Source: a virus
IMG/VR virus record: IMGVR_UViG_3300050343_000270
Coordinates: 1 to 64,000 of that record
Strand: one strand, 5' to 3'
Length of the DNA stretch: 64,000 bases
Each line of letters opens with the position of its first letter. The stretch's first letter is position 1. A model generated the notes under the pieces. The model made no database searches, was not told the origin of the DNA, and worked only from the letters and a program-made list of their open reading frames with translations. Below are positions 22,641-39,490 of this stretch, piece by piece. A program made the position numbers and the translations under genes.

Positions 22641-22852
22641 GTGTTTGTAGATTTGCTTTAATATGCGTTGTGACAGGTTGCATGTTAAAAGATCAAATAG
22701 TCTACCCCAAATACATTCAAGCGGCTCAGATGGCAACCTCATGCGAAATACACATATACAGATAGATATTTCGTTCCAACTTCAAACCAAAAAAGGACAA
22801 ATAACCATTGCACCGAATATAAAGAAAAGAAATGTGTTGTTGTGCTGATGTT

Positions 22853-22932
22853 GTAAGTCACTTAGTATCAACGAGTTACGCCCAAGAGGGGGGCGCTTCG
22901 CCGTAACTCATTGAGTATCAACGAGTTATGAC
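22853..22932. repeat. 80-bp double-palindrome element, copy 1 of 9
   Basis: Two TAA(G/C)TC-N13-GA(G/C)TTA sites 50 bp apart with a G-rich linker. Confidence 0.9.
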
Positions 22933-23114
22933 TATTTTTTTGTTAGAGTGTTAAACCAGAAAACCCCGCCCCCTGTGTTCTAACAGGAGACGGGGAAGCG
23001 CCACAGAAAAGATTTTTTAAAAAATGCTATTGTCTAACATGTTCGCTAAGAACAATTAGCATAGATAAAAAGATGCAAGCCATGATTGAATATATATCCA
23101 TTAGACTTGTTAGA

Positions 23115-23825
23115 TTAGGCGCAAGGCTCGATTACAAAGCCGCTCGCATCCTTCTTGGCTAGTCCTTTTTCTATCAGTCCAACCACTACGCCTTTTTTGT
23201 CAAGGAAGCGTAAGTCGCTGTCGTCGCCGTCTATTACCTCGAAACCGTTCCATGTCTTAGGAAGTGAGCCGCGAAACACTGCCGCGATATTTCCGCCGCT
23301 TTTAAGAACTGAAACCATTTCAAGGTCAGAACTTTCTTCGCTCCGTGAGAGTGTTAGAGAATAGTTGTTAGGCAATTCTCCATTAAGAAATTGAGTCATT
23401 CTGTCAACTGATTTGGTATAGTCGTAAAAGATTTGATCTTTAAACTTATCAAACACATTTAAACCGTCAAAATGTTTCATATTTTCCCACGGCAAGTCAC
23501 TTGTTAGATTGAGACGAAAGCAAGCCTTCATTTTTTTTCTTGTCGCAGACTTAACAGCTTTTGTTATTTCATCGGATAATTGAGCCATAAAGTTCTTGCG
23601 ATCTTTAAACACTCGAATTGTTTTCTTTATTCGAGCCTCTTGGACATTTTTCATTGCTCCCCGTCCAGCAGTGTTCAAACATGCCATTGCGCATCCTTTA
23701 CTTGCCCACTTGCACACGTTGAAGCCGCTTACTTTTGACGGCGCAAGGTGAATGCCAAATGTTTTCCATCCCTTTTTTTCTCCCTTTGCTGTCTTGCTAT
23801 TTCCTGAGTTTAGTATTTTCTGCAT
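23115..23825 (-). CDS. Conserved phage protein, Gp88-like
   Basis: NSKTAKG, LAP, VC..AS.GC..ACLNTAGRG, RLN.TSD, FYDYTK and DGD.SDLRFLD. Start follows TACAAT-N6-ATG. Confidence 0.8.
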   Translation of the reverse strand: MQKILNSGNSKTAKGEKKGWKTFGIHLAPSKVSGFNVCKWASKGCAMACLNTAGRGAMKNVQEARIKKTIRVFKDRKNFMAQLSDEITKAVKSATRKKMKACFRLNLTSDLPWENMKHFDGLNVFDKFKDQIFYDYTKSVDRMTQFLNGELPNNYSLTLSRSEESSDLEMVSVLKSGGNIAAVFRGSLPKTWNGFEVIDGDDSDLRFLDKKGVVVGLIEKGLAKKDASGFVIEPCA

Positions 23826-23926
23826 GGCGGTATTGTAACAGAATTGCGAATGCACACAAGCTTTTTTAAATTATTTTTTAATCTTTTTTTTATCACTTTT
23901 TACTTGACAAGCGTGATCTGTTAGAT

Positions 23927-24505
23927 TTAGTTAGATTTGATCTGAGACGAAAGCCAGAGGTGATCAGTCAAAGCCTTTGCCTTCTTAAAAATTGGCGATA
24001 CAGATACAGTTGTGTCGAACCTGCGGTATTCTATGAGAGTAAGCAAAAACTTCTTTTCTTTTATGTAGGTCTTAGCGAACTTAGGGTCATTTTCGGTGAT
24101 GTCTCTTGTGTTAGATATGAGGTCGGCTAATTTAATGATTAGAGGAGTGTTACCTAGCGAAACAAGCCTCCAAGCCTCTGATTCTTTTCTTGCTTTTCTG
24201 TTCCAAGCAGGAAAGTTGGTTTTAGTGAATACATCTGTTAGATCAAGTATAACACTTGCATTAATTCTGCCAAACTTTTCCACCAATTTCTCGAAACTGT
24301 AGTCCGCATTAATCGGCGCAACATCTTCTAACACATCATGCCCCAAAGCTCCAATAGTGAAATCATCGCCATAGTAACCAAAAGACTGAAGAATCTCAAG
24401 AACTTCTTCTGTGTGAGTCCAGTAAGGAAAGCCAGTATACTTTCTTTTGTGGTTTATGGAGTCGTGTGCTTCCCTGAAGAAAGTTATTAATTGGTCGGTT
24501 GTCAT
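23927..24505 (-). CDS. HD-domain phosphohydrolase, RelA/SpoT hydrolase-like
   Basis: AH...RKYTG.PY..H...HDVLED...LTD...IKLADLISN. True start at 24505 after TATAAT-N6. Confidence 0.85.
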   Translation of the reverse strand: MTTDQLITFFREAHDSINHKRKYTGFPYWTHTEEVLEILQSFGYYGDDFTIGALGHDVLEDVAPINADYSFEKLVEKFGRINASVILDLTDVFTKTNFPAWNRKARKESEAWRLVSLGNTPLIIKLADLISNTRDITENDPKFAKTYIKEKKFLLTLIEYRRFDTTVSVSPIFKKAKALTDHLWLSSQIKSN

Positions 24506-24668
24506 GGCTGTATTATAGCGCAACGGAGGAGTGAAGCAACTGTTTTTTAATGTTTTTTTTGTGGAACAAAATGTTCCACGGAATAGTCGTAAGTCCTTCA
24601 TTATCAACGAGTTACGACGGTGCGGGGGGCGCTTCGCCGTAACTCGCTCTGTTTCAACGAGTTACGAC
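24506..24668 (-). promoter_or_regulatory. Cassette copy 2: sigma70 promoter + GTGGAAC-N5-GTTCCAC operator + double palindrome
   Basis: TTGCTT-N16-TATAAT on the minus strand; operator 24561-24579; element 24589-24668. Confidence 0.85.
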
Positions 24669-24683
24669 TATTATTACGATATT

Positions 24684-24959
24684 TTAGTGCTTTACCCTTT
24701 CGCACAGTTTGTGGCAACAGTACCCCTCTGCTTTCGCAACCATGTCTTGCCTCATCACCTCCATGTCTGCTTTGAGTTGTGGATCTTCTTTGCACATAAC
24801 GTCATACGATAGAGACGCGTCAACTAACTTATTGCCTTCTCTAACATATTCTTTTCCTAGATTAACTTCCAAGGTTTCGGGGTTGTAGTAAACGCGCATT
24901 AAGATAGGACTCCCCCCATCTTCGCACGGTATCAATTGATCTACTATATGTTTAGGCAT
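24684..24959 (-). CDS. Hypothetical protein
   Basis: 91-aa ORF in an early operon. Confidence 0.6.
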   Translation of the reverse strand: MPKHIVDQLIPCEDGGSPILMRVYYNPETLEVNLGKEYVREGNKLVDASLSYDVMCKEDPQLKADMEVMRQDMVAKAEGYCCHKLCERVKH

Positions 24960-24961
24960 TG

Positions 24962-25225
24962 TTAATCGTTGTTTAAAATGTTTATGATCTCCTCCGAGAT
25001 ACCCAGAACAGAAGCAATCCTCACATTCATTTCGAACGCTTGCGTTGCAGTGTCTTTTTGATCATCCTCAGATTTTACATATTGATTCCGATCATGAAAA
25101 GATTCATAAGGAAATTTGTCTAATGCATTTTTAAGGCTTGTGTGGAAGTCTACCCATTCTTTAATTAAGGATTCGCGACTATTTCCATTCATGTGTATTG
25201 CGGGGGCGATTTGGCGAGCGTTCAT
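24962..25225 (-). CDS. Hypothetical protein
   Basis: 87-aa ORF with TAAAAT-N6-ATG upstream. Confidence 0.6.
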   Translation of the reverse strand: MNARQIAPAIHMNGNSRESLIKEWVDFHTSLKNALDKFPYESFHDRNQYVKSEDDQKDTATQAFEMNVRIASVLGISEEIINILNND

Positions 25226-25249
25226 GGTGATATTTTAAGTGTTTAGGTG

Positions 25250-25615
25250 TTAACTGTCAAGATTTTTGGCGAAGATTTTATAACCTTTTTTATTCCCTTT
25301 GATGACGACTAAATCGGCGTGATGCACTGGATTAGATTCTGCGTCTACAAACGTTGGAGCTTTGTATGGATTATAGAAGATTTGATTTTTAGCGGTTGAG
25401 TAATCACGCCGCCCGTTGCATTCGCCCACGACAACAGCATGAACGTTTTTTTTCTTTTCTTTAAGGACTCGCTGTCTACCAGCTTCAGAAACTTTGAATT
25501 CCGCATTTGTTAGAACAACCTCTTCGGCGTAGCGCACAACCTTCCATACGCCATTGACTTTTTCTTGCAATGAGAGGCACCGCCGATGGAGGTTAAAGTA
25601 TATTCTCGTTTTCAT
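25250..25615 (-). CDS. Conserved phage hypothetical protein
   Basis: YFNLH...FKVSEAGRQRVLKEKKKNVHA...YNPYK pattern. Confidence 0.75.
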   Translation of the reverse strand: MKTRIYFNLHRRCLSLQEKVNGVWKVVRYAEEVVLTNAEFKVSEAGRQRVLKEKKKNVHAVVVGECNGRRDYSTAKNQIFYNPYKAPTFVDAESNPVHHADLVVIKGNKKGYKIFAKNLDS

Positions 25616-25622
25616 GTTTTAA

Positions 25623-25916
25623 TTAATCTGTTATAAAAACTTGCTTACCATCCACCTTCCAGAAACCCTTATTGCTTTGCTTCTTGGCATGTTTGATAAT
25701 GTTCTTTGCCGTGCCTCTAACATAAGAGTCTTCAGAGTCTGCAAATCGCCCAATTAGGCTGATCACCTTTTTAAGCTGTTGCTTTGAGGTAGATATAGAA
25801 AACCCGTTGCTGATTAGGTCACCATTGGCTATACCAACGGCTTCTAACATATCTTGATAGTCCGATGACTCCATAACCCTTTTGAGATATAGAACCCCCT
25901 GCTTTTGCTTTGTCAT
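25623..25916 (-). CDS. Hypothetical protein
   Basis: True start at 25916 (MTKQKQ) after TATAAT-N6. Confidence 0.65.
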   Translation of the reverse strand: MTKQKQGVLYLKRVMESSDYQDMLEAVGIANGDLISNGFSISTSKQQLKKVISLIGRFADSEDSYVRGTAKNIIKHAKKQSNKGFWKVDGKQVFITD

Positions 25917-26079
25917 GGCTGTATTATAGCGCAACGGAGGAGTGAAGCAACTGTTTTTTAATGTTTTTTTTGTGGAACAAAATGTTCCACGGAACCTCTG
26001 TAAGTCACTAAGTATCAACGAGTTACGACCGTGCGGGGGGCGCTTCGCCGTAACTCGCTCTGTTTCAACGAGTTATGAC
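25917..26079 (-). promoter_or_regulatory. Cassette copy 3: promoter + operator + double palindrome
   Basis: Promoter and operator identical to copy 2; element 26000-26079. Confidence 0.85.
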
Positions 26080-26198
26080 CATCAATGTTACTTCTTGTGT
26101 ATTAGTTCCCCGAAAAAATAGAAAAGAGAAACAATTAATATCATCGCTATTATGAATCCTACAACTTCTGTAATTATTGCCTCCATGATCTTATTATA

Positions 26199-26639
26199 TT
26201 AGAGTTCCTTAATGCGTATGAATTTTAATCTTCCTTCGTGTTTATAGCCACTTGAATCCATCCATGTAATAAAGCTGATACCTATACCACACACTCCGTC
26301 GATGATATCTTGTGTGTATTTAAGTTTGAACTGTTCATATTGTTCTTCTGTCAGGTCGCCATAATCAATATTACGTCTACGGTTTTTTGTTCGTTTCTTC
26401 GAATCTACAGCCTCATTAAATTCTTCCTCGCTAAGTTGTTTACCTTCGATGTACCATTCCTTATAGCCATTAGCATATTCGCAAGCAGGTCCATCTAGAC
26501 GGTGACGCTCACCATTTTGATACCAAGCCTTATATCCATCAACACCTTCAAAAGCAGGTCCATTTAGACGGTGACGCTCATCATTTTGAAACCATTCTCT
26601 AGTACCGTCGTCGTTTACTTTTACTTTATACTCTTGCAT
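26199..26639 (-). CDS. MORN-like repeat protein (HRLDGPA repeats)
   Basis: 22-aa repeats W.QN...HRL.GPA.E. Confidence 0.8.
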   Translation of the reverse strand: MQEYKVKVNDDGTREWFQNDERHRLNGPAFEGVDGYKAWYQNGERHRLDGPACEYANGYKEWYIEGKQLSEEEFNEAVDSKKRTKNRRRNIDYGDLTEEQYEQFKLKYTQDIIDGVCGIGISFITWMDSSGYKHEGRLKFIRIKEL

Positions 26640-26643
26640 AATC

Positions 26644-27162
26644 TTATTCCTTAATACGAAGTTTCTTTACATCGATGTTCATTGCTTTTGCTATATCCTC
26701 AAGAGTTACCTCGACTTTGTTATTTCTATTATTGAATTCTTCTTCAGTAAGTTTTATACCGTCAATATACCAAGCCTTATATCCATCAGCATCTTCAACA
26801 GCAGGTCCATCTAACCGATGAAGCTTATCATTTTGATGCCAATACTTATTTCCATTAGAACGTTCAACAGCAGGACCATCTAGACGGTGAAGCTCATCAT
26901 TTTGATACCATTCCTTATCACCATTAGCCAATTCAACAGCAGGTCCATCTTCACGATGAAGCTTTCCATTTTGATACCATGTCTTATTGCCATTAGAATT
27001 CTCAAAAGCAGGACCATCTAACCGATGAAGCTTATCATTTTGATACCAAGCCTTACTGCCATTAGAACGTTCAATAGCAGGTCCATCTAACCGATGAAGC
27101 TTATCATTTTGCCGCCACCACTTATCGCCGCTGTCTTTTACTTTTACTACGTACTCTTGCAT
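26644..27162 (-). CDS. MORN-like repeat protein (five LHRxDGPA repeats)
   Basis: 66-bp tandem repeats; true start MQEYVVK at 27162. Confidence 0.85.
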   Translation of the reverse strand: MQEYVVKVKDSGDKWWRQNDKLHRLDGPAIERSNGSKAWYQNDKLHRLDGPAFENSNGNKTWYQNGKLHREDGPAVELANGDKEWYQNDELHRLDGPAVERSNGNKYWHQNDKLHRLDGPAVEDADGYKAWYIDGIKLTEEEFNNRNNKVEVTLEDIAKAMNIDVKKLRIKE

Positions 27163-27195
27163 AATTTTTTTTGTTTTATCCCTTTCGGTAAGGAC

Positions 27196-27350
27196 ATTAT
27201 AGCGCAACGGAGGAGTGAAGCAACTGTTTTTTAATGTTTTTTTTGTGGAACAAAATGTTCCACGGAACCTCTGTAAGTCATTGAGCATCAACGAGTTACG
27301 ACGGCGCGGGGGGCGATTCGTCATAAGTCGTTAAGTATCAACGAGTTACG
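27196..27350 (-). promoter_or_regulatory. Cassette copy 4: promoter + operator + double palindrome
   Basis: Promoter identical to copies 2 and 3; element 27273-27350. Confidence 0.85.
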
Positions 27351-27584
27351 GATTAGAAAAGTCTACGTGCAAAACGTTTTTTTTATCCTCTTCGATTTCT
27401 AAACTAACAGATTCTATGAACCCCGCGAGCATTTGGGGATCTTTAAAAATCAAATCATTTAGAACTCCCTCTGGATATTCTTCATCTGTTAGAAACTCTC
27501 CTTCAACTGTAAATTTTACTATTTGTGTCACTAAATTGTTGCGCCCCCGAAGGGGCTTTGTTATTAGGCATTGACCTTGTTAGA

Positions 27585-27929
27585 TTAGAACCAGCACGAA
27601 TAGAAAACCTGCTTGCCCTCTCTCAAGGTATCATACGCATCAGAGATGAAAGAAAGAGTTTGTTCTTTTTTGTATTCATCATATCTCGAATCATTCCCAT
27701 AGAAAAATCCGTGTGTTTCTGGTAGCGCGTCATTAACGACAGCCGCTTCAAGCCTTTCGATGTCGCTCATATTCAGTTCAAGCTCTGAACAATTCCAATC
27801 GACGCTGTTTCCCTTGGTGCGCCATAGAGCCTCCATCCATCCGTCCAACGCATTGTGCTTGCGCCAACTTTGGATTTCGATGGTGTCCCCGTCTTGATTT
27901 CTTGTATATGCCCGTTGATCTAGTCCCAT
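27585..27929 (-). CDS. Conserved phage hypothetical protein
   Basis: MGLDQ...WRKHNAL.GWM...LP.T.GFFYG...FYSCW pattern. Confidence 0.75.
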   Translation of the reverse strand: MGLDQRAYTRNQDGDTIEIQSWRKHNALDGWMEALWRTKGNSVDWNCSELELNMSDIERLEAAVVNDALPETHGFFYGNDSRYDEYKKEQTLSFISDAYDTLREGKQVFYSCWF

Positions 27930-28000
27930 TTTATTGTTCCTTTCTTTTTAGTTGTTTGTTAGTTGTTAGTTTTTTTGGTTTTGTCCCTCTCGGTAAGGAC

Positions 28001-28164
28001 ATTATAGCGGAAATGGCGGAAAAAGCAAGAACCTTTTGCATGTTTATGCACTTTTTTTGTGGAACAAAATGTTCCACAGGATCGTCATAAGTCCCTAAGC
28101 GTCAACGAGTTACAACCGAGCGGCGGGGGCTTCGTCATAACTCGTTCTATTACAATGACTTACG
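28001..28164 (-). promoter_or_regulatory. Cassette copy 5: promoter + operator + double palindrome
   Basis: TTGCTT..TATAAT; operator 28059-28077; element 28087-28164; terminator-like hairpin 28207-28234. Confidence 0.8.
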
Positions 28165-28281
28165 TGGGTTATTTACGCTGTTAGAAACTGTTAGATTGGG
28201 GGTAAGAAAAACCCCCGCTGGTTGGCGGGGGAAAACTGTTAGGTTTATTACTTCCGTCTAGTGACGGGGATCTGTTAGCTG

Positions 28282-29046
28282 TCAAGCTGGGAGAACTAGA
28301 CCAGTCTCATTGTCAACTGTTAGGCTAGGCGAGTGATTCGCCAAGCGGTCAAAGTTGGATTGGATTGTCATTGTTCTCTGTGGCAACTTGGAAACGTCTG
28401 AACCCTTGAGCATCTCGGTGCAAGCGTTGTAGAGATTCCAGAGGTTGTTACCCTTGAACTCCTCATGGCGTGGAGCTTCAAACTCTTTGACAGTCTTGTA
28501 AACGTCGCGAGCAGAGAACCCCTTGGAGTCTACCAGATCAATCATCAAGTCAGCCGCTTGATTGCGCGTGATCTCAGTCTCTTGATACGCCGTGATGCGC
28601 TGTGCCATGTCAGACCAGTGAGAGGTGACGCGAGAAACAGCAGAAGATAACACGCGAGGCAAGTCTGTTAGGATTCGCGGAGTATGACGGCGAGCAAGTT
28701 TGATATCAGAGGAGAAACAAAGGTTATCACACACAAGCATCTGATTCCCGATGCAAATTGCGGAAGCAAAAGCCTTGTCATGGCTGTTACGGATTCCGAC
28801 AACTAGATTTCGGTCATCTGCTTGAATGTCCTTGCCAGTGATAGCGAAGCCGCCGAAGTAGCGAAGATCACCACGGGCTAGACCATGCTCCTCATGTGTG
28901 ATTTCTAAGCCAGCGCGATTAAGAGCCTTGCGTGTATAATCTACGAGCGTAGCGTGAGGAATTGGCGTGTGGGTGTCCGTTCCAGCAGGTGTGTTGAGGT
29001 TAGCAAGCTGGTCGGATTCGATGCGGTTTTTTGATAGTATTAACAT
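28282..29046 (-). CDS. DUF932-like protein
   Basis: THTPIPH...GIRNSHDK...VCDNLCF...RRHT...NLWNLYNA.TE.LK. Confidence 0.75.
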   Translation of the reverse strand: MLILSKNRIESDQLANLNTPAGTDTHTPIPHATLVDYTRKALNRAGLEITHEEHGLARGDLRYFGGFAITGKDIQADDRNLVVGIRNSHDKAFASAICIGNQMLVCDNLCFSSDIKLARRHTPRILTDLPRVLSSAVSRVTSHWSDMAQRITAYQETEITRNQAADLMIDLVDSKGFSARDVYKTVKEFEAPRHEEFKGNNLWNLYNACTEMLKGSDVSKLPQRTMTIQSNFDRLANHSPSLTVDNETGLVLPA

Positions 29047-29313
29047 GTTTTTTTTGTTTAGTTGGTTAAGCGTCTTTCGTGACTGCGGGGACATTATAAC
29101 CTAAAACATTTTCATAAGCAAGCTATTTTCGCATAAAAAACGATTTATTTTCACATGTTCCACGGAAATGTTCCACGCGCAAATCGACCTAACAACACCT
29201 GTTAGAGTGTCAAATACTCCCTAACAATGCCAGATATTTGGGTAAATAACCATTTGGAGTTTCTGTTAGTTTAAGTGGTTCAGTGTCAATGAGTTATGTG
29301 TTTGTAGATATAC

Positions 29314-29393
29314 GTAAGTCCTTCAGTATCAACGAGTTACGACGGTGCGGGGGGCGCTTCGCCGTAACTCGTTCAGTATCAACGAGTTATGAC
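29314..29393. repeat. 80-bp double-palindrome element, copy 6
   Basis: Matches the consensus; extra single site at 29271-29298; TGTTCCAC tandem at 29156-29176. Confidence 0.9.
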
Positions 29394-29476
29394 GATTTTT
29401 CTGTTAGAGTCTTGAGCAAAAAAACCCCGCCCCCCGATCTAACAGGGGACGAGGCTAACACTACTCCAGAAAACTG

Positions 29477-29749
29477 TTAGGCTACGACCTCGATTCCTGT
29501 TAGGTGCAACGTGCGGTATTTCTCCTGCGCGTTGTCGTCAATGTCAGTCGCTAAGACTTTAAGGCAACGTCTGCCATTTTTCTTGGCATGCCATACGTCT
29601 TCCACGGCGTGAATTTTAAAAGTGCGCTCCTTGTCTCTGCGCACAGTTGACTTCCCGTGGTTAATGTATCGCACAGTGCGATCTTTGAGAAGGTTTGCGA
29701 TCTCCAGAGCGGAGGCGGTTATATCTGTGTTTGTGTTTGCGATTTGCAT
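29477..29749 (-). CDS. Hypothetical protein
   Basis: TTGACT-N17-TACAAT-N6-ATG gives start MQIAN. Confidence 0.6.
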   Translation of the reverse strand: MQIANTNTDITASALEIANLLKDRTVRYINHGKSTVRRDKERTFKIHAVEDVWHAKKNGRRCLKVLATDIDDNAQEKYRTLHLTGIEVVA

Positions 29750-29851
29750 GGTTGTATTGTAGTTGGTTTTTTCGGTTGAGTCAATCCCTTTTTTTCGGAT
29801 TGTAAGATTATTTAGTGCTTTTAAAACGTCCATTTGTTTTATGTGTTTGTG

Positions 29852-30019
29852 TTATTCTGGCACGATTGCCATTACATGCTCGATAGAGAAGCCGATTTCT
29901 TCTCCGTCCTCAGTCGTTCCCCAGAATGGGCGGTGAGGGTTATTTTCTACAACTTCGTCAACGATGACACAAGCTCCATTCACGATCACTTCTGTGCCGA
30001 TTTTGATTTGTTCTTTCAT
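29852..30019 (-). CDS. 55-aa hypothetical protein (paralogue of 33650..33844; not in the ORF track)
   Basis: MKEQIKIGTEVIVNGACVIVDEV...FWGTTEDGEEIGFSIEHVMAIVPE. Confidence 0.65.
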   Translation of the reverse strand: MKEQIKIGTEVIVNGACVIVDEVVENNPHRPFWGTTEDGEEIGFSIEHVMAIVPE

Positions 30020-30162
30020 AACTGTTGTAATTTTGATGGGTTAACTTCTTCTTCTCCGACTTGCTCACTCTCGATAACGACATTGCCGTTGTCAAGAATC
30101 TCAACAACTTGAACGTTGTCGCCGTCGAACCTAAACCACTGATTAATCTCTATCTTCATCAT
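30016..30162 (-). CDS. 48-aa hypothetical protein (not in the ORF track)
   Basis: TATAAT-N6-ATG; ATGA overlap with the next gene. Confidence 0.6.
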   Translation of the reverse strand: MMKIEINQWFRFDGDNVQVVEILDNGNVVIESEQVGEEEVNPSKLQQL

Positions 30163-30255
30163 GCATATATTATAGTAGAAAACTGGATTTTTACAAGCTA
30201 TTTCGACATTAAAAACGCTTTTTTTTTACTTTTTAACTCATTCATTATCAACGAC

Positions 30256-30774
30256 TTAGAATTGTTCCACAGAATTGTTCCACAGAGATAGCTCGAATTT
30301 GCGTCTTTTCACTAATCCTTTGCGTATTTTTCCCCCCGCCATGCGATACATAGGCATTACTTCAGAAACGCTCTTATAGTTTCCATCGTTTAAACGTCCC
30401 TCTTGAGAAACAAGCTGATAGAGTGCGCCCCTTCCGCAGTTGTATGTGAAACTTGTTAGAGCGGCGAGTTGGTAATCTGTTAGAGGCACTTTAACAATAG
30501 AAAGAACTGTTTTTTTGTATTCGTGTAATTCATTTTCTAACAACTCGAAAGCCTCCCGCTCGGAGATGAAACCTTTTGAAACTGCTTTTCCTGTGTGACC
30601 ATATCCAATTGTTAGTTTTCCGCCGCAACACACATACGCCTTGGCTCTGAATCCCTCGAAATGTTTAATGCCTTGCGTCATGTGATACCAAGGCACGTTA
30701 GGTTTTACTAACAGAGCATTGTTAGAAGCCAAGGCTGGGGTGATGAAAAGCGCGAACAGTATTATAATTTTCAT
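30256..30774 (-). CDS. GH24 phage lysozyme with N-terminal signal peptide
   Basis: FEG.R..AY..GKLTIGYGHT...ALTSFTYNCG...GLVKRR..E; N-terminus MKIIILFALFITPALA. Confidence 0.88.
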   Translation of the reverse strand: MKIIILFALFITPALASNNALLVKPNVPWYHMTQGIKHFEGFRAKAYVCCGGKLTIGYGHTGKAVSKGFISEREAFELLENELHEYKKTVLSIVKVPLTDYQLAALTSFTYNCGRGALYQLVSQEGRLNDGNYKSVSEVMPMYRMAGGKIRKGLVKRRKFELSLWNNSVEQF

Positions 30775-30780
30775 GGTGTA

Positions 30781-30936
30781 ATTATACTCTAACAGATGGG
30801 CTTTGGCTAGCATTTATTTTTCTTTTTTTGTGGAACAAAATGTTCCACGGAATAGTCATAAGTCCTTCATTATCAACGAGTTACGACGATGCGGCGGGGG
30901 CTTCGCCATAAGTCGTTCATTATCAACGAGTTACGA
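30781..30936 (-). promoter_or_regulatory. Cassette copy 7: promoter + operator + double palindrome
   Basis: TATAAT-N6-ATG; operator 30830-30848; element 30858-30936. Confidence 0.85.
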
Positions 30937-30955
30937 TTGCTTTTTTATTGAATTA

Positions 30956-31036
30956 TGGTGGAGCATAGGGGAATCGAACCCCTGTCCGCGATCACTGGGT
31001 TATACCCTATCACTCACGTCTAAACCTGTATGCCCC
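30956..31036 (-). ncRNA. Minimal tmRNA-like RNA (tRNA-like domain only, 81 nt)
   Basis: GGGGCAT/ATGCTCC-ACCA acceptor stem with G3.U wobble; stemless D-loop ACAGGTTTAGAC; GGAC-AGGGG-TTCGATT-CCCCT T-arm; no tag ORF between them. Confidence 0.8.
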
Positions 31037-31042
31037 GTAATC

Positions 31043-31190
31043 ACCTTCATACTCTCTCGGATACACACGGGAATCTTTATACCCGTCCAATGGAGTCACC
31101 CATAGTTAACACAACCAGTTTCCGTGACTAAATGGAAGTTTACTTGTGCGGCAAGTTTACTGCTTAATGCACCTGAGAAAGTATGTAGGT
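31043..31190 (-). ncRNA. Candidate rod-shaped structured RNA (6S-like?)
   Basis: ~22-bp closing stem ACCTACATACTTTCTCAGGTGCAT/GTGTATCCGAGAGAGTATGAAGGT, a central bubble and an inner AGTCAC/GTGACT stem. Confidence 0.5.
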
Positions 31191-31199
31191 TTTAAATTG

Positions 31200-31421
31200 T
31201 TAGTTGTTAGAAAGGGCGACCTCGGCTTTGTAGTTTTCTTCGTCGATGCGCTCAAGCTCCTCAAGCTCTTCTATCTCTTCGTTCAGATTTTTCAGTTCTT
31301 GCTGTGCTTGGAAAACATCGAAATTTATTTTCCATGAAGCAGAACCGCCATTATTGAATTCATCTATTTGAAAGTCGAGGCGAGCGGCGCGTTGCTTTTT
31401 GCTAAGTAGTGTTTCAGTCAT
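31200..31421 (-). CDS. Hypothetical coiled-coil protein
   Basis: TACAAT-N6-ATG start. Confidence 0.6.
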   Translation of the reverse strand: MTETLLSKKQRAARLDFQIDEFNNGGSASWKINFDVFQAQQELKNLNEEIEELEELERIDEENYKAEVALSNN

Positions 31422-31427
31422 GGGCAT

Positions 31428-31592
31428 ATTGTACCAAAAAAGAGCGAAACCGCAAGAACTTTCTGCATGTTTTTTAACTTTTTTTGTGGAACAAAATGTT
31501 CCACGGAATAGTCATAAGTCCTTCATTATCAACGAGTTACGACGGTGCGGCGGGGGCTTCGCCGTAACTCGTTCAGTATCAATGAGTTATGA
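31428..31592 (-). promoter_or_regulatory. Cassette copy 8: promoter + operator + double palindrome
   Basis: Operator 31486-31504; element 31514-31592. Confidence 0.85.
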
Positions 31593-31802
31593 TTGTTAGA
31601 AGCTGTTAGATACATATCAGAGTTCCTTAGTATTCAGTTTTTCCCATCGTTCGATTTTTATGCCTAACCGTTCGATTTTAGCACCCAGCGTTGAAGCCTT
31701 GATCATCAGCCTCTTCAGTCTCCAACAATTGATATTGTTTATTAGGTTTTTCATTTTGTAGTGTGGTGTTTCGTATCTCATACTATTATTATATTAGAGT
31801 TC

Positions 31803-32668
31803 CTAAAGATATTCTTTCACATATCCGCGAGCATCATCTAAATGCTCTGCATCATCAAGTTCGTTGAGAATTGCAAGCTTGATCTTCTCAACCATTTCAG
31901 GAAGGTCTGATTTGCTGAACTCTAAATGCTCCATACCCTCGCAATAGTCAAGGATAATGTTTTTAATCTTATTCTTTTCGTTCATATCTTATTATATTAG
32001 TGTTTCGCAAGCTGTCTTTTTCTCACTTGCTTGGATTCATTATAGTATAATTCTCAGAAAGCGCAAGGATTATTTCGCCCTTTTATCACTTTGTCAGTTC
32101 TCCCAAGGAAATTTAGTTACGCTCGCCTCACTCCACCCGTCGATAAGACCACGCGCCCACTCAGCTTCTTCTCGCGCTTCGTTCCTTTCGCGTTCAAGTC
32201 TTTCAACATCTTCAAGCTTTAACGACTTATCATTTTCTTTTTTAAGGCGGCGAATCTCTTGAATGAGCATATTCATTTCATCAATGAAGTCGTCAACTCC
32301 TGACATTTTGTCACCGTAAACATCGGTTACAGTTCCATCGTTGCAGTTGTATTCGTAGTTGTGGGCGGTGAATTCGTTTTTCATACCTAATTATATTAGT
32401 GTTTCAATTAGTCTACAACTTCCTCTGTCAATTCGGTGGTAACCACCTTAGTTAATTTGACGACTTCTACTTTTTCGTTAGGGATGATTACCTGAACTCC
32501 ATGACCTAAAACATAGGTATATTTGTCATTCTTGTATGGTGTTTTGGTCTTGTTAGTAATCTCTTCTCCAACATCGATTGTGCGTTCCACGCCATGCCAT
32601 TTGAACGTGTGTTGTTCGCGCATGCGGTGCATGTAGTTTGTGGTAGTTTTTCTGTTAGTGTTTTTCAT
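31803..32668 (-). other. Three small hypothetical genes (31803-31985, 32094-32384, 32408-32668)
   Basis: Co-oriented ORFs; a ~95-bp promoter/leader is duplicated at ~31997-32092 and ~32681-32777. Confidence 0.6.
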
Positions 32669-32722
32669 AGTAGTATTTTTTTAGTGTTTCGCAAGCTGTC
32701 TTTTTCTCACTTGCTTGGCTAT

Positions 32723-32889
32723 ATTATAGTATAATTTTCAGAAACCGCAAGGATTATTTCGCCCTTTTATCACTTTTTTTTGTGGAACAAAATGTTCCAC
32801 GGAGACTCTGTAACTCGTTCATTATCAACGACTTATGACGGTGCGGCGGGGGCATCGTTGTAACTCGTTCAGTATCAACGACTTATGAC
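32723..32889 (-). promoter_or_regulatory. Cassette copy 9: promoter + operator + double palindrome
   Basis: Operator 32782-32800; element 32810-32889; terminator-like hairpin 32915-32952. Confidence 0.85.
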
Positions 32890-32992
32890 GATTTTTCTGT
32901 TAGAGTTTTGAGCCAAAAAAGCCCCGCCTCCCACACTACTAGGAGACGAGGCTAACACTACTGCACTATGAAAGCTGTTAGATTGTTAGATG

Positions 32993-35366: not shown

Positions 35367-36215
35367 TCATTTTTGTTTATTGTTTTGTGTAAGTTTGCTG
35401 ATGTGGTGTCCGATGTGGTCACCTTTGTGGTCGCCGACTTGGTCGCCTTCGTGGTAGCCGATGTGGTCGCCGTCGTGGCGTCCGATATGGTCGCCCCAGT
35501 GGTAGCCGATGTGGTTGCCCCAGTGGCTACCTTCGTGGTCGCCGTAGTGGAGTCCTTCGTGGTCGCCGTGGTGGTTGCCGATGTGGTCGCCTTCATGGTC
35601 GCCTTTGTGTCTGCCTTTGTGGTCACCATCGTGGCTTCCAATGTGGTCGCCTTCGTGGTAGCCGATATGGTCGCCCCAGTGGTAGCCTTTGTGGTCTCCG
35701 TTGTTGTAGCCGATATGGTCGCCTACGTGGTCGCCGATGTGGTCGCCGTAGTGGAGTCCTTCGTGGTCGCCGTGGTGGTTGCCGTAGTGGTTACCCTCGT
35801 GTTTACCTTCGTGCTTGCCAATGTGGTTTCCGTAGTGGTCGCCCCAGTGGATGCCTTCGTGGATGCCGTAGTGGCTTCCTTTGTGTTTGCCGTAGTGGTC
35901 GCCGTAGTGGCTTCCTTTGTGGTCGCCGTGGTGGTTGCCGTAGTGGCTTCCTTTGTGGTCACCTTTGTGGTCACCTTTGTGGTTGCCTCCGTGGTCGCCG
36001 TCGTGGTCCCAGTGGTTTCCGTAGTGGTTTCCGACATGGTCGCCGTAGTGGCATCCGTAGTGGTCGCCGTAGTGGAGTCCTTCGCGGTTGCCGTAGTGGT
36101 TGCCTATGTGGTTGCCTATCAGGTCAGTTTTCAACTTTGTTAAGACTAGCTTTCCGTCTTCGTCATATCCAAACGACGCAACCTCTGATATTTCTTTTAG
36201 TGTTGGTTCTTTCAT
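35367..36215 (-). CDS. His/Gly-rich tetrapeptide (G-x-H-x) repeat protein
   Basis: About 60 consecutive 12-bp GxHx units between short unique termini. Confidence 0.8.
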   Translation of the reverse strand: MKEPTLKEISEVASFGYDEDGKLVLTKLKTDLIGNHIGNHYGNREGLHYGDHYGCHYGDHVGNHYGNHWDHDGDHGGNHKGDHKGDHKGSHYGNHHGDHKGSHYGDHYGKHKGSHYGIHEGIHWGDHYGNHIGKHEGKHEGNHYGNHHGDHEGLHYGDHIGDHVGDHIGYNNGDHKGYHWGDHIGYHEGDHIGSHDGDHKGRHKGDHEGDHIGNHHGDHEGLHYGDHEGSHWGNHIGYHWGDHIGRHDGDHIGYHEGDQVGDHKGDHIGHHISKLTQNNKQK

Positions 36216-36730
36216 TTTATTTTTAGTTGTTTTTAGTTTATTTTAGTTTATTTTAATTTTGCCTATTTTGGCTCTAACACTGCGAAGCTCTTTTTTTAGA
36301 ATGCCTATGATAACCCCCACCGAGGCATCCTCCATTTCTTTAACTAAGTCTTCATTATCGACCCAGACCCTTTTTTCCCCAAGGTAGGCAGGTGTAGTGG
36401 TGTAGAGGTGGATTCCGCGATTCTGAGATTTTTATGATTTGTCTAGATATCGAGTCACGGTAATCTCTTAAATCAATAAGAGATTCTATTTTTTAGTTGC
36501 CTTTTGTTTGCGAAGCTCTTTTGCCTATTTTTTTCATGTCTTCATTATCTTTTTTCCTTCCGCGGTGGACTAGATATCGAGCAAATCTCTATCAGAAAAT
36601 AGCAATCTAGTTTTTAGTATTGGTTAAATTATCGAACAAGCCGAAGCATTTCCTTGGTGGACGTGCAAACTATCAGAAAATAGCGTGAATGTCAATAATT
36701 ATTTTAATTCTTCTCATCTTGGCGCGATAG

Positions 36731-37019: not shown

Positions 37020-37190
37020 TCATTTTATATATTTAAGGGATTTTTTAGCGTGGTGCATCATCGCCCCTATCTCTCCATTCCTGCACGCCCTACGCAACTC
37101 GCTCTCGTGGTATTCAATAAAAAACAACCGAACAAGGCATTGTATCCAACGCCATGCATCGTTGGAGGGTTTAATTAAAAGTTTTTTCAT
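37020..37190 (-). CDS. 56-aa cassette protein starting inside an attC loop (not in the ORF track)
   Basis: MKKLLIKPSNDAWRWIQCLVRLFF...; reads through the left arm. Confidence 0.55.
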   Translation of the reverse strand: MKKLLIKPSNDAWRWIQCLVRLFFIEYHESELRRACRNGEIGAMMHHAKKSLKYIK

Positions 37191-37203
37191 GGCGTGGATA
37201 AAT

Positions 37204-37410
37204 TTAGACGTTCTCCGAAGATGAAATAGCGTGTCGCCATGTCACATCGGTCAGACCATGATGGATTATTTCGAGCGGGTAGTCGCCAAGTGTGCCGAGA
37301 TTGGCGCGGAGCACTCCGCCCTTCCAGTAGACCGCGACCCACTCGGGCTTGTAATCGTTTTCCATGCATCGCAAGTAGTAGCCTCCCGTTTTTATGTCTT
37401 TAAGTTCCAT
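37204..37410 (-). CDS. Hypothetical cassette protein
   Basis: Ends ENV* inside an attC right arm. Confidence 0.6.
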   Translation of the reverse strand: MELKDIKTGGYYLRCMENDYKPEWVAVYWKGGVLRANLGTLGDYPLEIIHHGLTDVTWRHAISSSENV

Positions 37411-37487
37411 GTTGTTGATTATTTTAAGTCATTGATTGTTTTTAGTTGTGCCACCGTTTAGACGGGGCGGCTGTTCTTAGCGTTCGC

Positions 37488-37715
37488 CTAATCATTTCTA
37501 AATGCGCTCCACCGCTCTCCGTCATCTAGGTAGTCGTCCATCTGGCAGGACTTTAAGAACTCTCGGTCAATTACCAAGACATCCTCACGGTCGAGCCATA
37601 GAATGTAGGCGTTGTCTTCCTCTGCGATTCGCTCAAGGCTTTTGCCTTTGTGTTTCCCAAACTCAAGAACAAACTCGGGCGAACAAGGCGTTGAAATCAA
37701 TTTCGTTTCACTCAT
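37488..37715 (-). CDS. Cassette protein with FGKHKG (DUF3820-like) motif
   Basis: LEFGKHKGKSL..I...D..YILWL; starts in an attC loop. Confidence 0.7.
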   Translation of the reverse strand: MSETKLISTPCSPEFVLEFGKHKGKSLERIAEEDNAYILWLDREDVLVIDREFLKSCQMDDYLDDGERWSAFRND

Positions 37716-37930
37716 GATTTAACTTGGTCGTTATCCAAGGAATATTTCACAGGTCCAGTCATGTCCCAAACGCTATCGAAGGGGTTGCCATCTGCCTCTT
37801 TCTCCCACCTCTCAAGCGTCTTCTTGGCTTTCGTCTCGCTACTGAATACGTGCGCCCCGTCGAGAGGGTCAAAGAGCACCCATAAGGCTCTGACCGCTTT
37901 TCGTGTTCTTATTTGTGTTTTTACGCTCAT
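37712..37930 (-). CDS. Hypothetical cassette protein
   Basis: Ends DNDQVKS* through an attC right arm; ATGA overlap with the next gene. Confidence 0.65.
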   Translation of the reverse strand: MSVKTQIRTRKAVRALWVLFDPLDGAHVFSSETKAKKTLERWEKEADGNPFDSVWDMTGPVKYSLDNDQVKS

Positions 37931-37968
37931 AATAAAAAATGGATAACAAGGCGATGCACGGGCAACGG

Positions 37969-38409
37969 CTACGCCGTGCCGTGATCTTGGTCGTTATCTC
38001 TATATGCATTTAAGGCTTCAATCACCCACGCCTCGAACTTGTCTTGAGCTTCACACGCTGAATCGTTGCTCATCGCTAGCCCTCCACCTCGCCCCGTCAG
38101 ATATCCCCACGCTCTCACGTCGAGCACGTTGGTATCTCCGCATTTGGTTCTGATGAATATCTTCCCCATGCTCCCGACACCGTAGAATTTACCATCAAAT
38201 TCACTAGGGAGAGAACAAGGCGAAACATCCGACAGCTTGCCGCTTGGTTTGGTTTCTGTGTTATCTTTTCCTGTGCCGTTGCATTTATGGCAGTCGGTTC
38301 TCCCTCCTCCACCAAAACCTTCAAGCTCGCCCAATCCATCGCAAAGGGAACAAGGCGAAGCATCCGACGGCTTGCCGCTTGGTTTGGTTTCTGTTTTATC
38401 TTTTTTCAT
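37969..38409 (-). CDS. Fused cassette protein with DnaJ-type CxxCxGxG zinc finger
   Basis: CSLCDGLG...CHKCNGTG; duplicated TETKPSGK.SD.SPCSL; ends DNDQDHGTA* at the attC apex. Confidence 0.65.
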   Translation of the reverse strand: MKKDKTETKPSGKPSDASPCSLCDGLGELEGFGGGGRTDCHKCNGTGKDNTETKPSGKLSDVSPCSLPSEFDGKFYGVGSMGKIFIRTKCGDTNVLDVRAWGYLTGRGGGLAMSNDSACEAQDKFEAWVIEALNAYRDNDQDHGTA

Positions 38410-38424
38410 GTCAATAATTTGTGT

Positions 38425-39132
38425 TTAACTTTCGCGGTTATCAACGGCTTCGCCGTGACATCGCTGATTGTTCGCTTCAAAACAATGGTTGAGATAGCCG
38501 ATTGCGAGACAAGCGGCATGTTCAGCCTGTTCCAGTGTGGTCTTGCTGGGGGCTTTCGTCCATATCGCCTCGTTAAGAGCCAATTTTAACTCAACCCAAT
38601 CGGGATCTTCGGAAAGCGAACAAGCCGAAGCATCCGACCCTTCACCGTTAATAGTTGTTTTTTCTTTTTCTTTGTGCATGTCAATAATTTGTTTTAACAT
38701 AGAATCCCTTGGATACCATCGGACTACATAATGCGCATGCACCATTGACCCGTCAGCGTTTCCTACCACCTTCTCGCAAATGCCGCGAAAAACTACGCGA
38801 CCATTAGAAAGCCGCCTCATCCTTCTCTTTCTAATCTTTCCGTCATAGTCCTCTGTCCATATTGGTTCTCCAAAAATAAGGCTAACAAGGCGCTTCATCC
38901 GACCGTTAACCGTTCCTGAGTTGGTTTCGTTTTCTTTTGTGTTCATAAGTTTTCTGGCATCTAAGCAAATATTGCAAATTGACCCGCAACATTCTTGTTT
39001 AACAATCACTTTAACGTGCCGTCCTGTCCCTGCCTCGGTCAACATTTCGTCGTTGATTGACTTGCATACATCACAGCTAACAAGCCGCTGGACATCAATG
39101 CCCACTTCAGCGGGCGTTTCTTGTGTTTTCAT
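38425..39132 (-). CDS. In-frame fusion of three cassette genes
   Basis: Three attC left-arm peptides (DVQRLVS, RMKRLVS, SDASACS), each preceded by its own ATG. Confidence 0.55.
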   Translation of the reverse strand: MKTQETPAEVGIDVQRLVSCDVCKSINDEMLTEAGTGRHVKVIVKQECCGSICNICLDARKLMNTKENETNSGTVNGRMKRLVSLIFGEPIWTEDYDGKIRKRRMRRLSNGRVVFRGICEKVVGNADGSMVHAHYVVRWYPRDSMLKQIIDMHKEKEKTTINGEGSDASACSLSEDPDWVELKLALNEAIWTKAPSKTTLEQAEHAACLAIGYLNHCFEANNQRCHGEAVDNRES

Positions 39133-39490
39133 GTTGTTTCTGTGTTGTTTCTGTGATTCCAAACGGTTCCATTGAAGTCATAAACCTTTCTAGCAGTTCG
39201 TCGGATCTCCATGCCACTGCGCACAAGTGGTAAACCGCCTCTTCCTTATCGCCTCTCATGTAAGCCTCCTCAAAATCGATGAGGTGTCGGCATATTTGGT
39301 TGCCATCGCCAATGCTGGCATCGACATCCCAAACCATACCCTCGTCCCCAGAATGTTTTAGGTTTGAGTTGTAAGAGTGGATGGATTTGGCGACATGTGC
39401 ATTGGGAAAGTATCTTGTGATATAGTGTAGTACGCGAGCTTTGTTTCTTTCGCTGTCTTCGCGTGGAAGAATTGTATTTTTTGACTGCAT
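39107..39490 (-). CDS. dATP/dGTP diphosphohydrolase-like protein (DUF5664)
   Basis: YFPNA...KH...W...ICRHL...HL.AVAWR pattern. Confidence 0.65.
   Translation of the reverse strand: MQSKNTILPREDSERNKARVLHYITRYFPNAHVAKSIHSYNSNLKHSGDEGMVWDVDASIGDGNQICRHLIDFEEAYMRGDKEEAVYHLCAVAWRSDELLERFMTSMEPFGITETTQKQHENTRNAR

Follow-up and report, generated by a model that had tools for sequence, protein, structure and literature searches.

We describe here an array of gene cassettes in a phage genome in which the recombination sites appear to act at the same time as coding sequence. The DNA analysed, called the window throughout, comprises the first 64,000 nucleotides of the IMG/VR virus record IMGVR_UViG_3300050343_000270, and the array occupies 36.6-39.2 kb of it, with all of its genes on the minus strand. 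In our judgement there is a probability of roughly 0.7 that this segment is a cluster of attC sites lacking integron integrases (CALIN) in an uncultured marine phage, that its cassettes bear their genes on the attC bottom strand, that these genes obey a phase rule at the crossover triplet AAC and swap C-terminal tails, and that the phase is under selection. The array is classed as a CALIN because intI and attI were not found beside it; in the sequence searched, neither adjoins it. At the level of sequence comparison, we document the architecture, the crossover position, the tail swapping, the phase rule and the phase-0 stops (phase 0 being the frame in which AAC is a codon). An original prediction, made from the letters of the window, had placed four protein tails with their stops and three ATG start codons at the hairpins of the array, and every one of these coordinates was confirmed on the sequence.

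Read along the gene strand, a cassette consists of C, a hairpin, a GTT box, a payload and a final ..AA, an order that is backwards relative to ordinary cassettes. Most payloads, having no stop of their own, would cross the junction AA/C (the slash marks the crossover) with AAC read as Asn and would stop in the next hairpin 2-20 codons later, and most cassettes would begin their own gene at an ATG inside attC, reading out through the R'' box. As payloads arrive in phase 0 and cassette 5' ends carry a phase-0 stop, any reshuffle should still terminate promptly.

The identification of the hairpins as attC sites was the premise of the original prediction, and it held. The window contains 16 copies of the motif G[GC]CTTGTT, where 4.9 would be expected, and nine of them are grouped on the minus strand at 36.6-39.1 kb. 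Good sites read, on that strand, xxxAAC, a spacer of 5-6 nt, left arm, loop, right arm with one unpaired base, GCCTT and GTTxxxx, a layout which, as we read it, an integron attC site shows on its bottom strand; the four main sites all join xxxAAC to GTTxxxx through inner complementary arms, with R' and R'' paired. An unconstrained scan for AAC...GTT hairpins was too noisy to define sites, and homology breakpoints and a covariance model were used in its place. This model, R1, was built solely from 53 aligned attC sites of the marine verrucomicrobium Oceaniferula spumae, whose integron has an intI gene. Although trained on genuine attC sites alone, it matched nothing in the window but this array, with six matches, every one on the minus strand (33.8 to 10.4 bits, E 5e-7 to 0.6; Table 1), short sites scoring weakly; against related loci it gave 78 matches across 32 loci, up to 64 bits. 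Rfam holds no attC family, and its matches in the window were limited to a tmRNA and a weak sRNA. The phage R' boxes (GGAGAAC, GGATAAC, AGCGAAC) and R'' boxes (GTTCGGT, GTTCGCC, GTTATCC) do not satisfy the strict consensus RYYYAAC and GTTRRRY, which they fit in the AAC and GTT triplets alone. By reading of the sequence, an extrahelical base lies in the gene-strand 3' arm of 37127-37216 (a single T), of 37678-37736 (C) and of a site in the related locus L008 (C); because of this placement, and because the corresponding motif of O. spumae lies on the bottom strand there, the genes are assigned to the attC bottom strand. In contrast to a canonical cassette, with a top-strand gene and attC downstream, all genes here are on the bottom strand and attC therefore stands at the 5' end of each gene.

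The link to O. spumae came from a scan of species genomes with a 20-nt motif, which returned six stretches in strain NT6N (NZ_AP026866; loci L082-L089, L091). The intI gene of this bacterium (TIGR02249, 394 bits against a cut-off of 265) lies at 2796309-2797250, and its attC array begins 2.3 kb from intI and spans 2799527-2876326, in the orientation to be expected of bottom strands; a second array without an integrase lies at 459-472 kb. The O. spumae sites measure about 117 nt and conform to RYYYAAC and GTTRRRY (e.g., GCCTAAC with GTTAGGC). Phage and bacterial sites belong to one type, with stretches of identity reaching 33 nt and a shared R' spacer, GCCTT spacer and GTT[AC]G box; in the window, the stretch identical to O. 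spumae sites is 38880-38912, the 3' part (about 33 nt) of the decayed site 38880-38997. Unlike the phage array, the O. spumae integron has intI, an array of at least 77 kb and sites of about 117 nt. No shared payload was detected by tblastn or blastn in 48 kb of the O. spumae array and the 3.9-kb intI locus, and the similarity is at the level of attC alone. Stop-codon remnants beside R'', read by eye, suggest that the genes of the O. spumae integron are on the top strand. The shared attC type suggests a verrucomicrobial host for the phage, and because the phage sites match those of the O. spumae chromosomal integron in type, an IntI supplied by the host would be the likely recombinase.

A viral scan and a metagenome scan together yielded about 30 related phage arrays (given L numbers); a first viral scan with a 17-nt motif had returned mostly chance matches, with four of 31 loci real. 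No cultured relative was found among GenBank phages by megablast of 30-50 kb or by tblastn of a 678-aa open reading frame (ORF). Comparison among the arrays fixes the crossover. L020 and L072, whose remaining DNA is unrelated, hold the 75-aa cassette (37482-37733) at 99.6% identity; its homology to L020 begins at ..TAA/C in site 2, and its homology to both ends exactly at GCGAA/C, beyond which the continuations differ. Many other payloads break at ..GAA/C with two to five different continuations, a single payload may precede up to five different cassettes, and in an all-against-all comparison 71 of 187 homology ends carried AAC at the break, against a background of 13%. Because cassette homology between contigs stops there, we place the crossover, from these alignments, between A and C of the bottom-strand AAC (G/TT on the top strand). 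Exchange is also seen among L077, L040, L059 and L060, near-identical phages (99.6-99.9%) that differ in cassette content, and in seawater DNA and RNA libraries, compared as contigs, which repeat joints of the array (37482 joined to 38469; ends at 37729-37733 and at 37996).

Some further observations concern the distribution and rearrangement of this kind of array. The segment at 36.6-39.2 kb is widespread: at least half of its sampled words are present in each of 14 seawater or other marine DNA data sets (about 12 studies), and single cassettes turn up in different surroundings in contigs from three metatranscriptome libraries. The 385 bp at 38234-38618 are absent from L040, L059 and L060 (99.9% identical upstream), and as the break falls at or beside the GSCTTGTT box and not at AA/C, recombination within conserved attC sequence also happens. 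In a microbial-mat metagenome, L064, L066 and L071 have six to nine attC sites of about 85 nt, 450-650 bp apart, which share the 20-nt L''-spacer-R'' motif, and long ORFs on both strands.

Since payloads stand beside different neighbours with breaks at AA/C, their products differ in their C-terminal tails. The original prediction had proposed to check whether one payload bears different tails in different phages, and thirteen payloads each have two to five. An ASCH-like payload ends in SS-NTHQSHGEAVDSRES, SS-NDQSEPLHG, SS-NGKDQS or SS-KRLS, each followed by a stop, or in a read-through of 46 aa; the 146-aa payload ends in NDQDHGTA in the window and in NNQRCHGEAVDTRES in L040, L059 and L060, and the 245-aa payload ends in NSKRCHGEAD in L056. 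Conversely, the tail DQVKS is common to the 72-aa gene of the window and an unrelated 78-aa zinc-ribbon gene in L020. A diverged relative of the 68-aa payload, in L012, ends in ..LDN-NNQIHGESK.

The codon phase at the crossover was counted on pooled junctions, defined by breakpoints or placed by R1, from which redundancy was removed on the 24 nt before AAC, leaving 35 distinct payload ends. The raw automated count for ORFs crossing AAC (n = 27) was 23 in phase 0, three in phase 2 and one in phase 1. Two of the four exceptions were artefacts of taking the longest ORF, by which the ORF of the downstream cassette had been picked; both junctions have 106 open codons in phase 0 when upstream codons alone are counted. 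After this correction AAC is in frame in 25 of the 27, where the crossover would be read as an Asn codon. In the long ORFs of this phage AAC is in frame in 44.6% of its occurrences, at which rate the probability of 25 or more in 27 is 2e-7 (1.6e-5 for the raw 23). The two remaining exceptions are a phase-0 payload in a variant that has one additional A and a truncation at a pseudo-site within a zinc-finger gene. As a control, six payloads with a stop of their own upstream show AAC phases of 2:2:2; two further payloads use TAA/C as their own stop. The frame bias at AA/C that the original prediction had proposed to look for in homologous arrays is thus present, and frame use is not random. The truncation, at L073 2696-2796, is of a zinc-finger cassette gene apparently cut short by recombination at an out-of-frame GGAGAAC inside the gene, which would be a secondary-site event.

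The stops tell a corresponding story, in line with the claim that each cassette supplies the tail and stop of its upstream neighbour. All 23 distinct cassette 5' ends have a phase-0 stop within 60 nt (median 24 nt), and phase 0 is the sole frame for which this is true of all 23; frames running for more than 90 nt occur in phase 1 in 10/23 and in phase 2 in 6/23 cassettes (Fisher p = 6e-4). Cassettes were also predicted to supply their own start, and the ATG of the next gene does lie inside attC in 21 of 28 cassettes. In these 21, the R'' box is read out as ..CS 13 times, as ..LV six times and in the third frame twice. Borrowed stop and next start overlap in four of the 23 cassettes, three times as ATGA and once by 8 nt.

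Four genes of the window cross their sites in this manner (Table 1). Site 1 holds the borrowed stop of the 68-aa gene, and its loop contains ATG 37190; in site 2 the tail DQVKS and its stop TGA (37714-37712) overlap ATG 37715 of the 75-aa gene as ATGA; a third start, ATG 38409, belongs to the leader module. In site 3 the tail DQDHGTA has its stop TAG (37971-37969) at the apex of an ACGGC/GCCGT stem, and in site 4 the tail NQRCHGEAVDNRES has its stop TAA (38427-38425) within GTTAAAC; the hairpin type of site 4 is also found after other payloads in L012, L020, L040 and L041. The right arm is read out as ..PCS at 37689, 38356 and 38221, as ..ACS at 38626 and as ..LV[RS] at 37138, 38891 and 39086. 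The 75-aa gene has a stop of its own, TAG, one codon (GCG, 3 nt) ahead of AAC, and as the ExoX-like domain of its protein starts at residue 17, residues 1-16 are attributed to attC site 2.

Table 1. Coordinates of the array features in the window, with scores of the covariance model R1
Feature	Position	Strand	R1 match	Details
56-aa ORF	37020..37190	minus		starts in the loop of site 1; coding status uncertain
attC site 1	37127..37216	minus	33.8 bits, E 5e-7	R' GGAGAAC, crossover between 37211 and 37210; R'' GTT 37133-37131
68-aa payload gene	37204..37410	minus		ends ..SSEN-V-stop; AAC 37212-37210, TAA 37206-37204; crosses AA/C of site 1
R' box GGCGAAC	37482..37488	minus		3' end of the 75-aa cassette
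75-aa payload	37488..37715	minus		ExoX-like C-terminal domain, residues 17-41 (Pfam PF20600, E 1.4e-8)
attC site 2	37678..37736	minus	14.0 bits, E 0.07	R' GGATAAC, AAC 37732-37730; R'' GTT 37684-37682
72-aa payload gene	37712..37930	minus		ends ..SLDN-DQVKS-stop; AAC 37732-37730; crosses AA/C of site 2
attC site 3	37941..37999	minus	10.4 bits	R' AGATAAC, AAC 37995-37993; R'' GTTATCC; next ATG 37930
146-aa ORF	37969..38409	minus		ends ..YRDN-DQDHGTA-stop; AAC 37995-37993; crosses AA/C of site 3
Decayed attC	38210..38266	minus	10.7 bits	inside the 146-aa ORF; no stable fold
Leader module	38345..38419	minus		TTGACA-like box, ATG 38409, leader peptide MKKDKTETKPSGKPSDASPCS
R1 match	38345..38454	minus	17.3 bits	
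attC site 4, inner hairpin type	38420..38476	minus		R' AGCGAAC, AAC 38472-38470
245-aa ORF	38425..39162	minus		ends ..FEAN-NQRCHGEAVDNRES-stop; AAC 38472-38470; crosses AA/C of site 4
Decayed full-length attC	38880..38997	minus	24.9 bits, E 1e-4	inside the 245-aa ORF; R' triplet mutated to AAT

The two longest ORFs of the array are chains of cassettes joined in frame, and each former cassette retains an internal ATG and leader. The 146-aa ORF consists of the leader, a CxxCxGxG zinc-finger cassette and a second payload, joined through the decayed site 38210-38266, which the ORF passes right through, its R' box AGATAAC giving KDN in frame; the 245-aa ORF holds at least three cassettes fused through decayed sites at 39079-39086, 38880-38997 and 38612-38660. 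At 38700, within the latter ORF, the hairpin that usually precedes GTTAAAAC has been deleted, and the borrowed stop is therefore lost there. Both ORFs resemble the fused cassettes of class 1 integrons, which arise by partial or total loss of attC (PMC4670013), in that they are joined through decayed or deleted sites; class 1 fusions, however, are rare accidents, and the phase rule of the phage concerns intact junctions.

The leader peptide MKKDKTETKPSGKPSDASPCS is encoded by an attC-derived L''-spacer-R'' piece, GTCGGATGCTTCGCCTTGTT, and the leader module belongs to the direct-repeat families D8 and D12, with the same 20-nt motif as the O. spumae sites. A conserved peptide ..SDASACS was considered as a lipobox or signal and rejected, the DNA motif being conserved in three frames and being part of the O. 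spumae attC sites. A promoter-like box, TTGACAT-N16/17-TAGTTT, precedes several cassette leaders (window 36680-36715, minus; L012 7400-7440, minus), and at 36642 the ATG and most of a leader have been deleted, leaving a remnant. No family match was found for the 56-aa ORF. Outside the array, a 282-aa ORF just downstream of it (35367-36215, minus) is made almost wholly of 12-nt (4-residue) HYGD/HxGD repeats, and the neighbouring block at 22847-32901 is divided by nine double-palindrome elements of about 98 nt (TAAGTC..GAGTTA pairs, 50 nt apart), a family distinct from the attC sites.

It seems that the single phase is maintained by selection, since it would ensure prompt termination in any order of cassettes, and that an incoming ribosome may open the hairpin and thereby help the next gene to start. 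We infer this purpose, safe termination and translational coupling, from the position of stops and starts, and several observations weigh against it or against the reading as a whole. The 23 cassette 5' ends were sampled at junctions preceded by a phase-0 payload. In only 11 of the 23 cassettes are the borrowed stop and the following ATG no more than 15 nt apart, and coupling therefore cannot be universal. The O. spumae attC sites already hold early bottom-strand stops in frames 0 and 1, and the phase-0 stop signal is therefore partly inherited. The arrays were collected through one 20-nt motif and represent one related attC family, not an unbiased census. Just two of the four hairpins fold better than their shuffles: site 3, the best (-13 kcal/mol, z -3.4, 0/200 shuffles as good), and site 1 (z -1.8), as compared with site 4 (z -1.2) and site 2 (z 0.07). 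Several array sites are decayed, and leader-type sites have no stable fold. A search of 20 window ORFs (226-409 aa) gave no tyrosine recombinase or integrase, and no integrase turned up in the record behind L032, a relative that is 70% complete. Finally, frame 1 is never used, although in the ancestral site it would meet a stop after one codon, and a need for termination does not by itself account for this. Its avoidance agrees better with a requirement for translation to enter the stem.

The strongest alternative, which we regard as unlikely, is that the array and its phase bias are real and that the bias is a by-product and not a selected translation rule. Its causes could be the origin or spread of the R' half-site (..SMGAA), for example by gene conversion between cassette ends, the purine-N-pyrimidine structure of codons, or inherited attC stops. 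The base rate of AAC in frame, about 45%, points in this direction, but 25 of 27 far exceeds it, and self-terminating payloads, at 2:2:2, show no preference of phase. The payload ends, too, speak against it, being unrelated sequences of unrelated proteins. The alternative has in its favour that the O. spumae stops exist in frames 0 and 1 even though the genes there appear to be on the other strand, and the phase-0 stops of the phage are not fully independent, as many hairpin left arms are interrelated (C-GAC-CAA-G..); frame 1, however, which would give the shortest tail in the ancestral site, is the one never used.

We consider it very improbable that the repeats are regulatory hairpins or promoter-leader modules of the phage and that the mosaicism stems from ordinary homologous recombination between repeats. 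The TTGACA-type box and conserved leader at several sites would suit such modules, as would the lack of an integrase in the ORFs and the relative searched, but a model made from the attC sites of a complete bacterial integron finds these repeats, in one orientation, and 33 nt are identical to its sites. Some homology does break at the R'' end or inside sites, which is expected from conserved attC sequence, whereas payload homology stops exactly at AA/C with up to five continuations. Least probable of all is that the junction-crossing ORFs are not translated as read, the real genes being shorter or the array a decaying silent relic, for although family matches are lacking for most payloads and decayed sites join the cassettes fused within the 146-aa and 245-aa ORFs, no earlier stop interrupts the payload frames over 60-270 codons, one payload has an in-frame Pfam domain, different phages and many seawater data sets contain identical cassettes, and cassettes occur in contigs of three metatranscriptome libraries, a weak hint in view of possible DNA carry-over.

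The reading as a phage CALIN with phase-locked bottom-strand cassettes has precedents for some of its parts. Clusters of attC sites without intI have already been reported in phages, marine virulent ones included, and recombination of such sites by IntI1 has been observed in an assay (Qi et al., 2023, PMC9892861). Those phages and ours share attC arrays with small cassettes in a genome without intI. The passages of that paper considered here describe no bottom-strand genes, crossover-crossing ORFs, fixed codon phase or neighbour-dependent tails, and unlike the cases given there, the window array comes with direct comparative evidence of cassette exchange between phages. For an ORF that crosses the crossover, the nearest precedent, going by the review in PMC8876359 (section 3.1), is ORF-11 of attI1 in class 1 integrons, described with ORF-18 (Hanau-Bercot, 2002). 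Like the phage genes, ORF-11 overlaps the crossover and takes its in-phase stop from the inserted cassette's core site, and phage ORFs do cross the crossover to an in-phase stop from the neighbouring cassette; according to the same section, ORF-11 supports translation of the next gene by coupling and has a neighbour-dependent length (11 or 18 aa). It is, however, a single short leader ORF at attI on the top strand, whereas the phage has bottom-strand protein genes, nearly every attC x attC junction involved, and AAC as an Asn codon. It has also been reported that attC hairpins in mRNA block ribosomes and that upstream translation relieves the block (Jacquier, 2009, as summarized in PMC8876359, section 3.2; Carvalho, 2024, PMC11511950). 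In the literature searched, attC arrays in phages were found described and phase-locked backwards cassettes were not. Phage attC clusters and an ORF crossing attI1 are thus known already, and the frame rule on backwards cassettes would be new.

Integron cassettes are usually seen as a gene plus a site outside the gene; here the site is within the coding sequence and holds the end of one protein along with the beginning of the following one, and one codon phase would make shuffles safe. We propose, tentatively, that the phase lock could be a selected plug-and-play translation grammar for a phage cassette pool recombined by host integron integrases: a ribosome arriving in phase 0 would melt the stem, meet a guaranteed stop and expose the next start codon in the loop. 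If so, any order of cassettes would give a translatable operon, and the array would clearly exemplify a recombination site that has evolved to be coding and translation-control sequence simultaneously. The link between this cassette pool and a marine verrucomicrobial attC type points to a likely host and to a recombinase acting in trans. As the C-termini of the array proteins depend on the neighbouring cassette, the tails must be allowed for when phage cassettes are annotated or screened for function.

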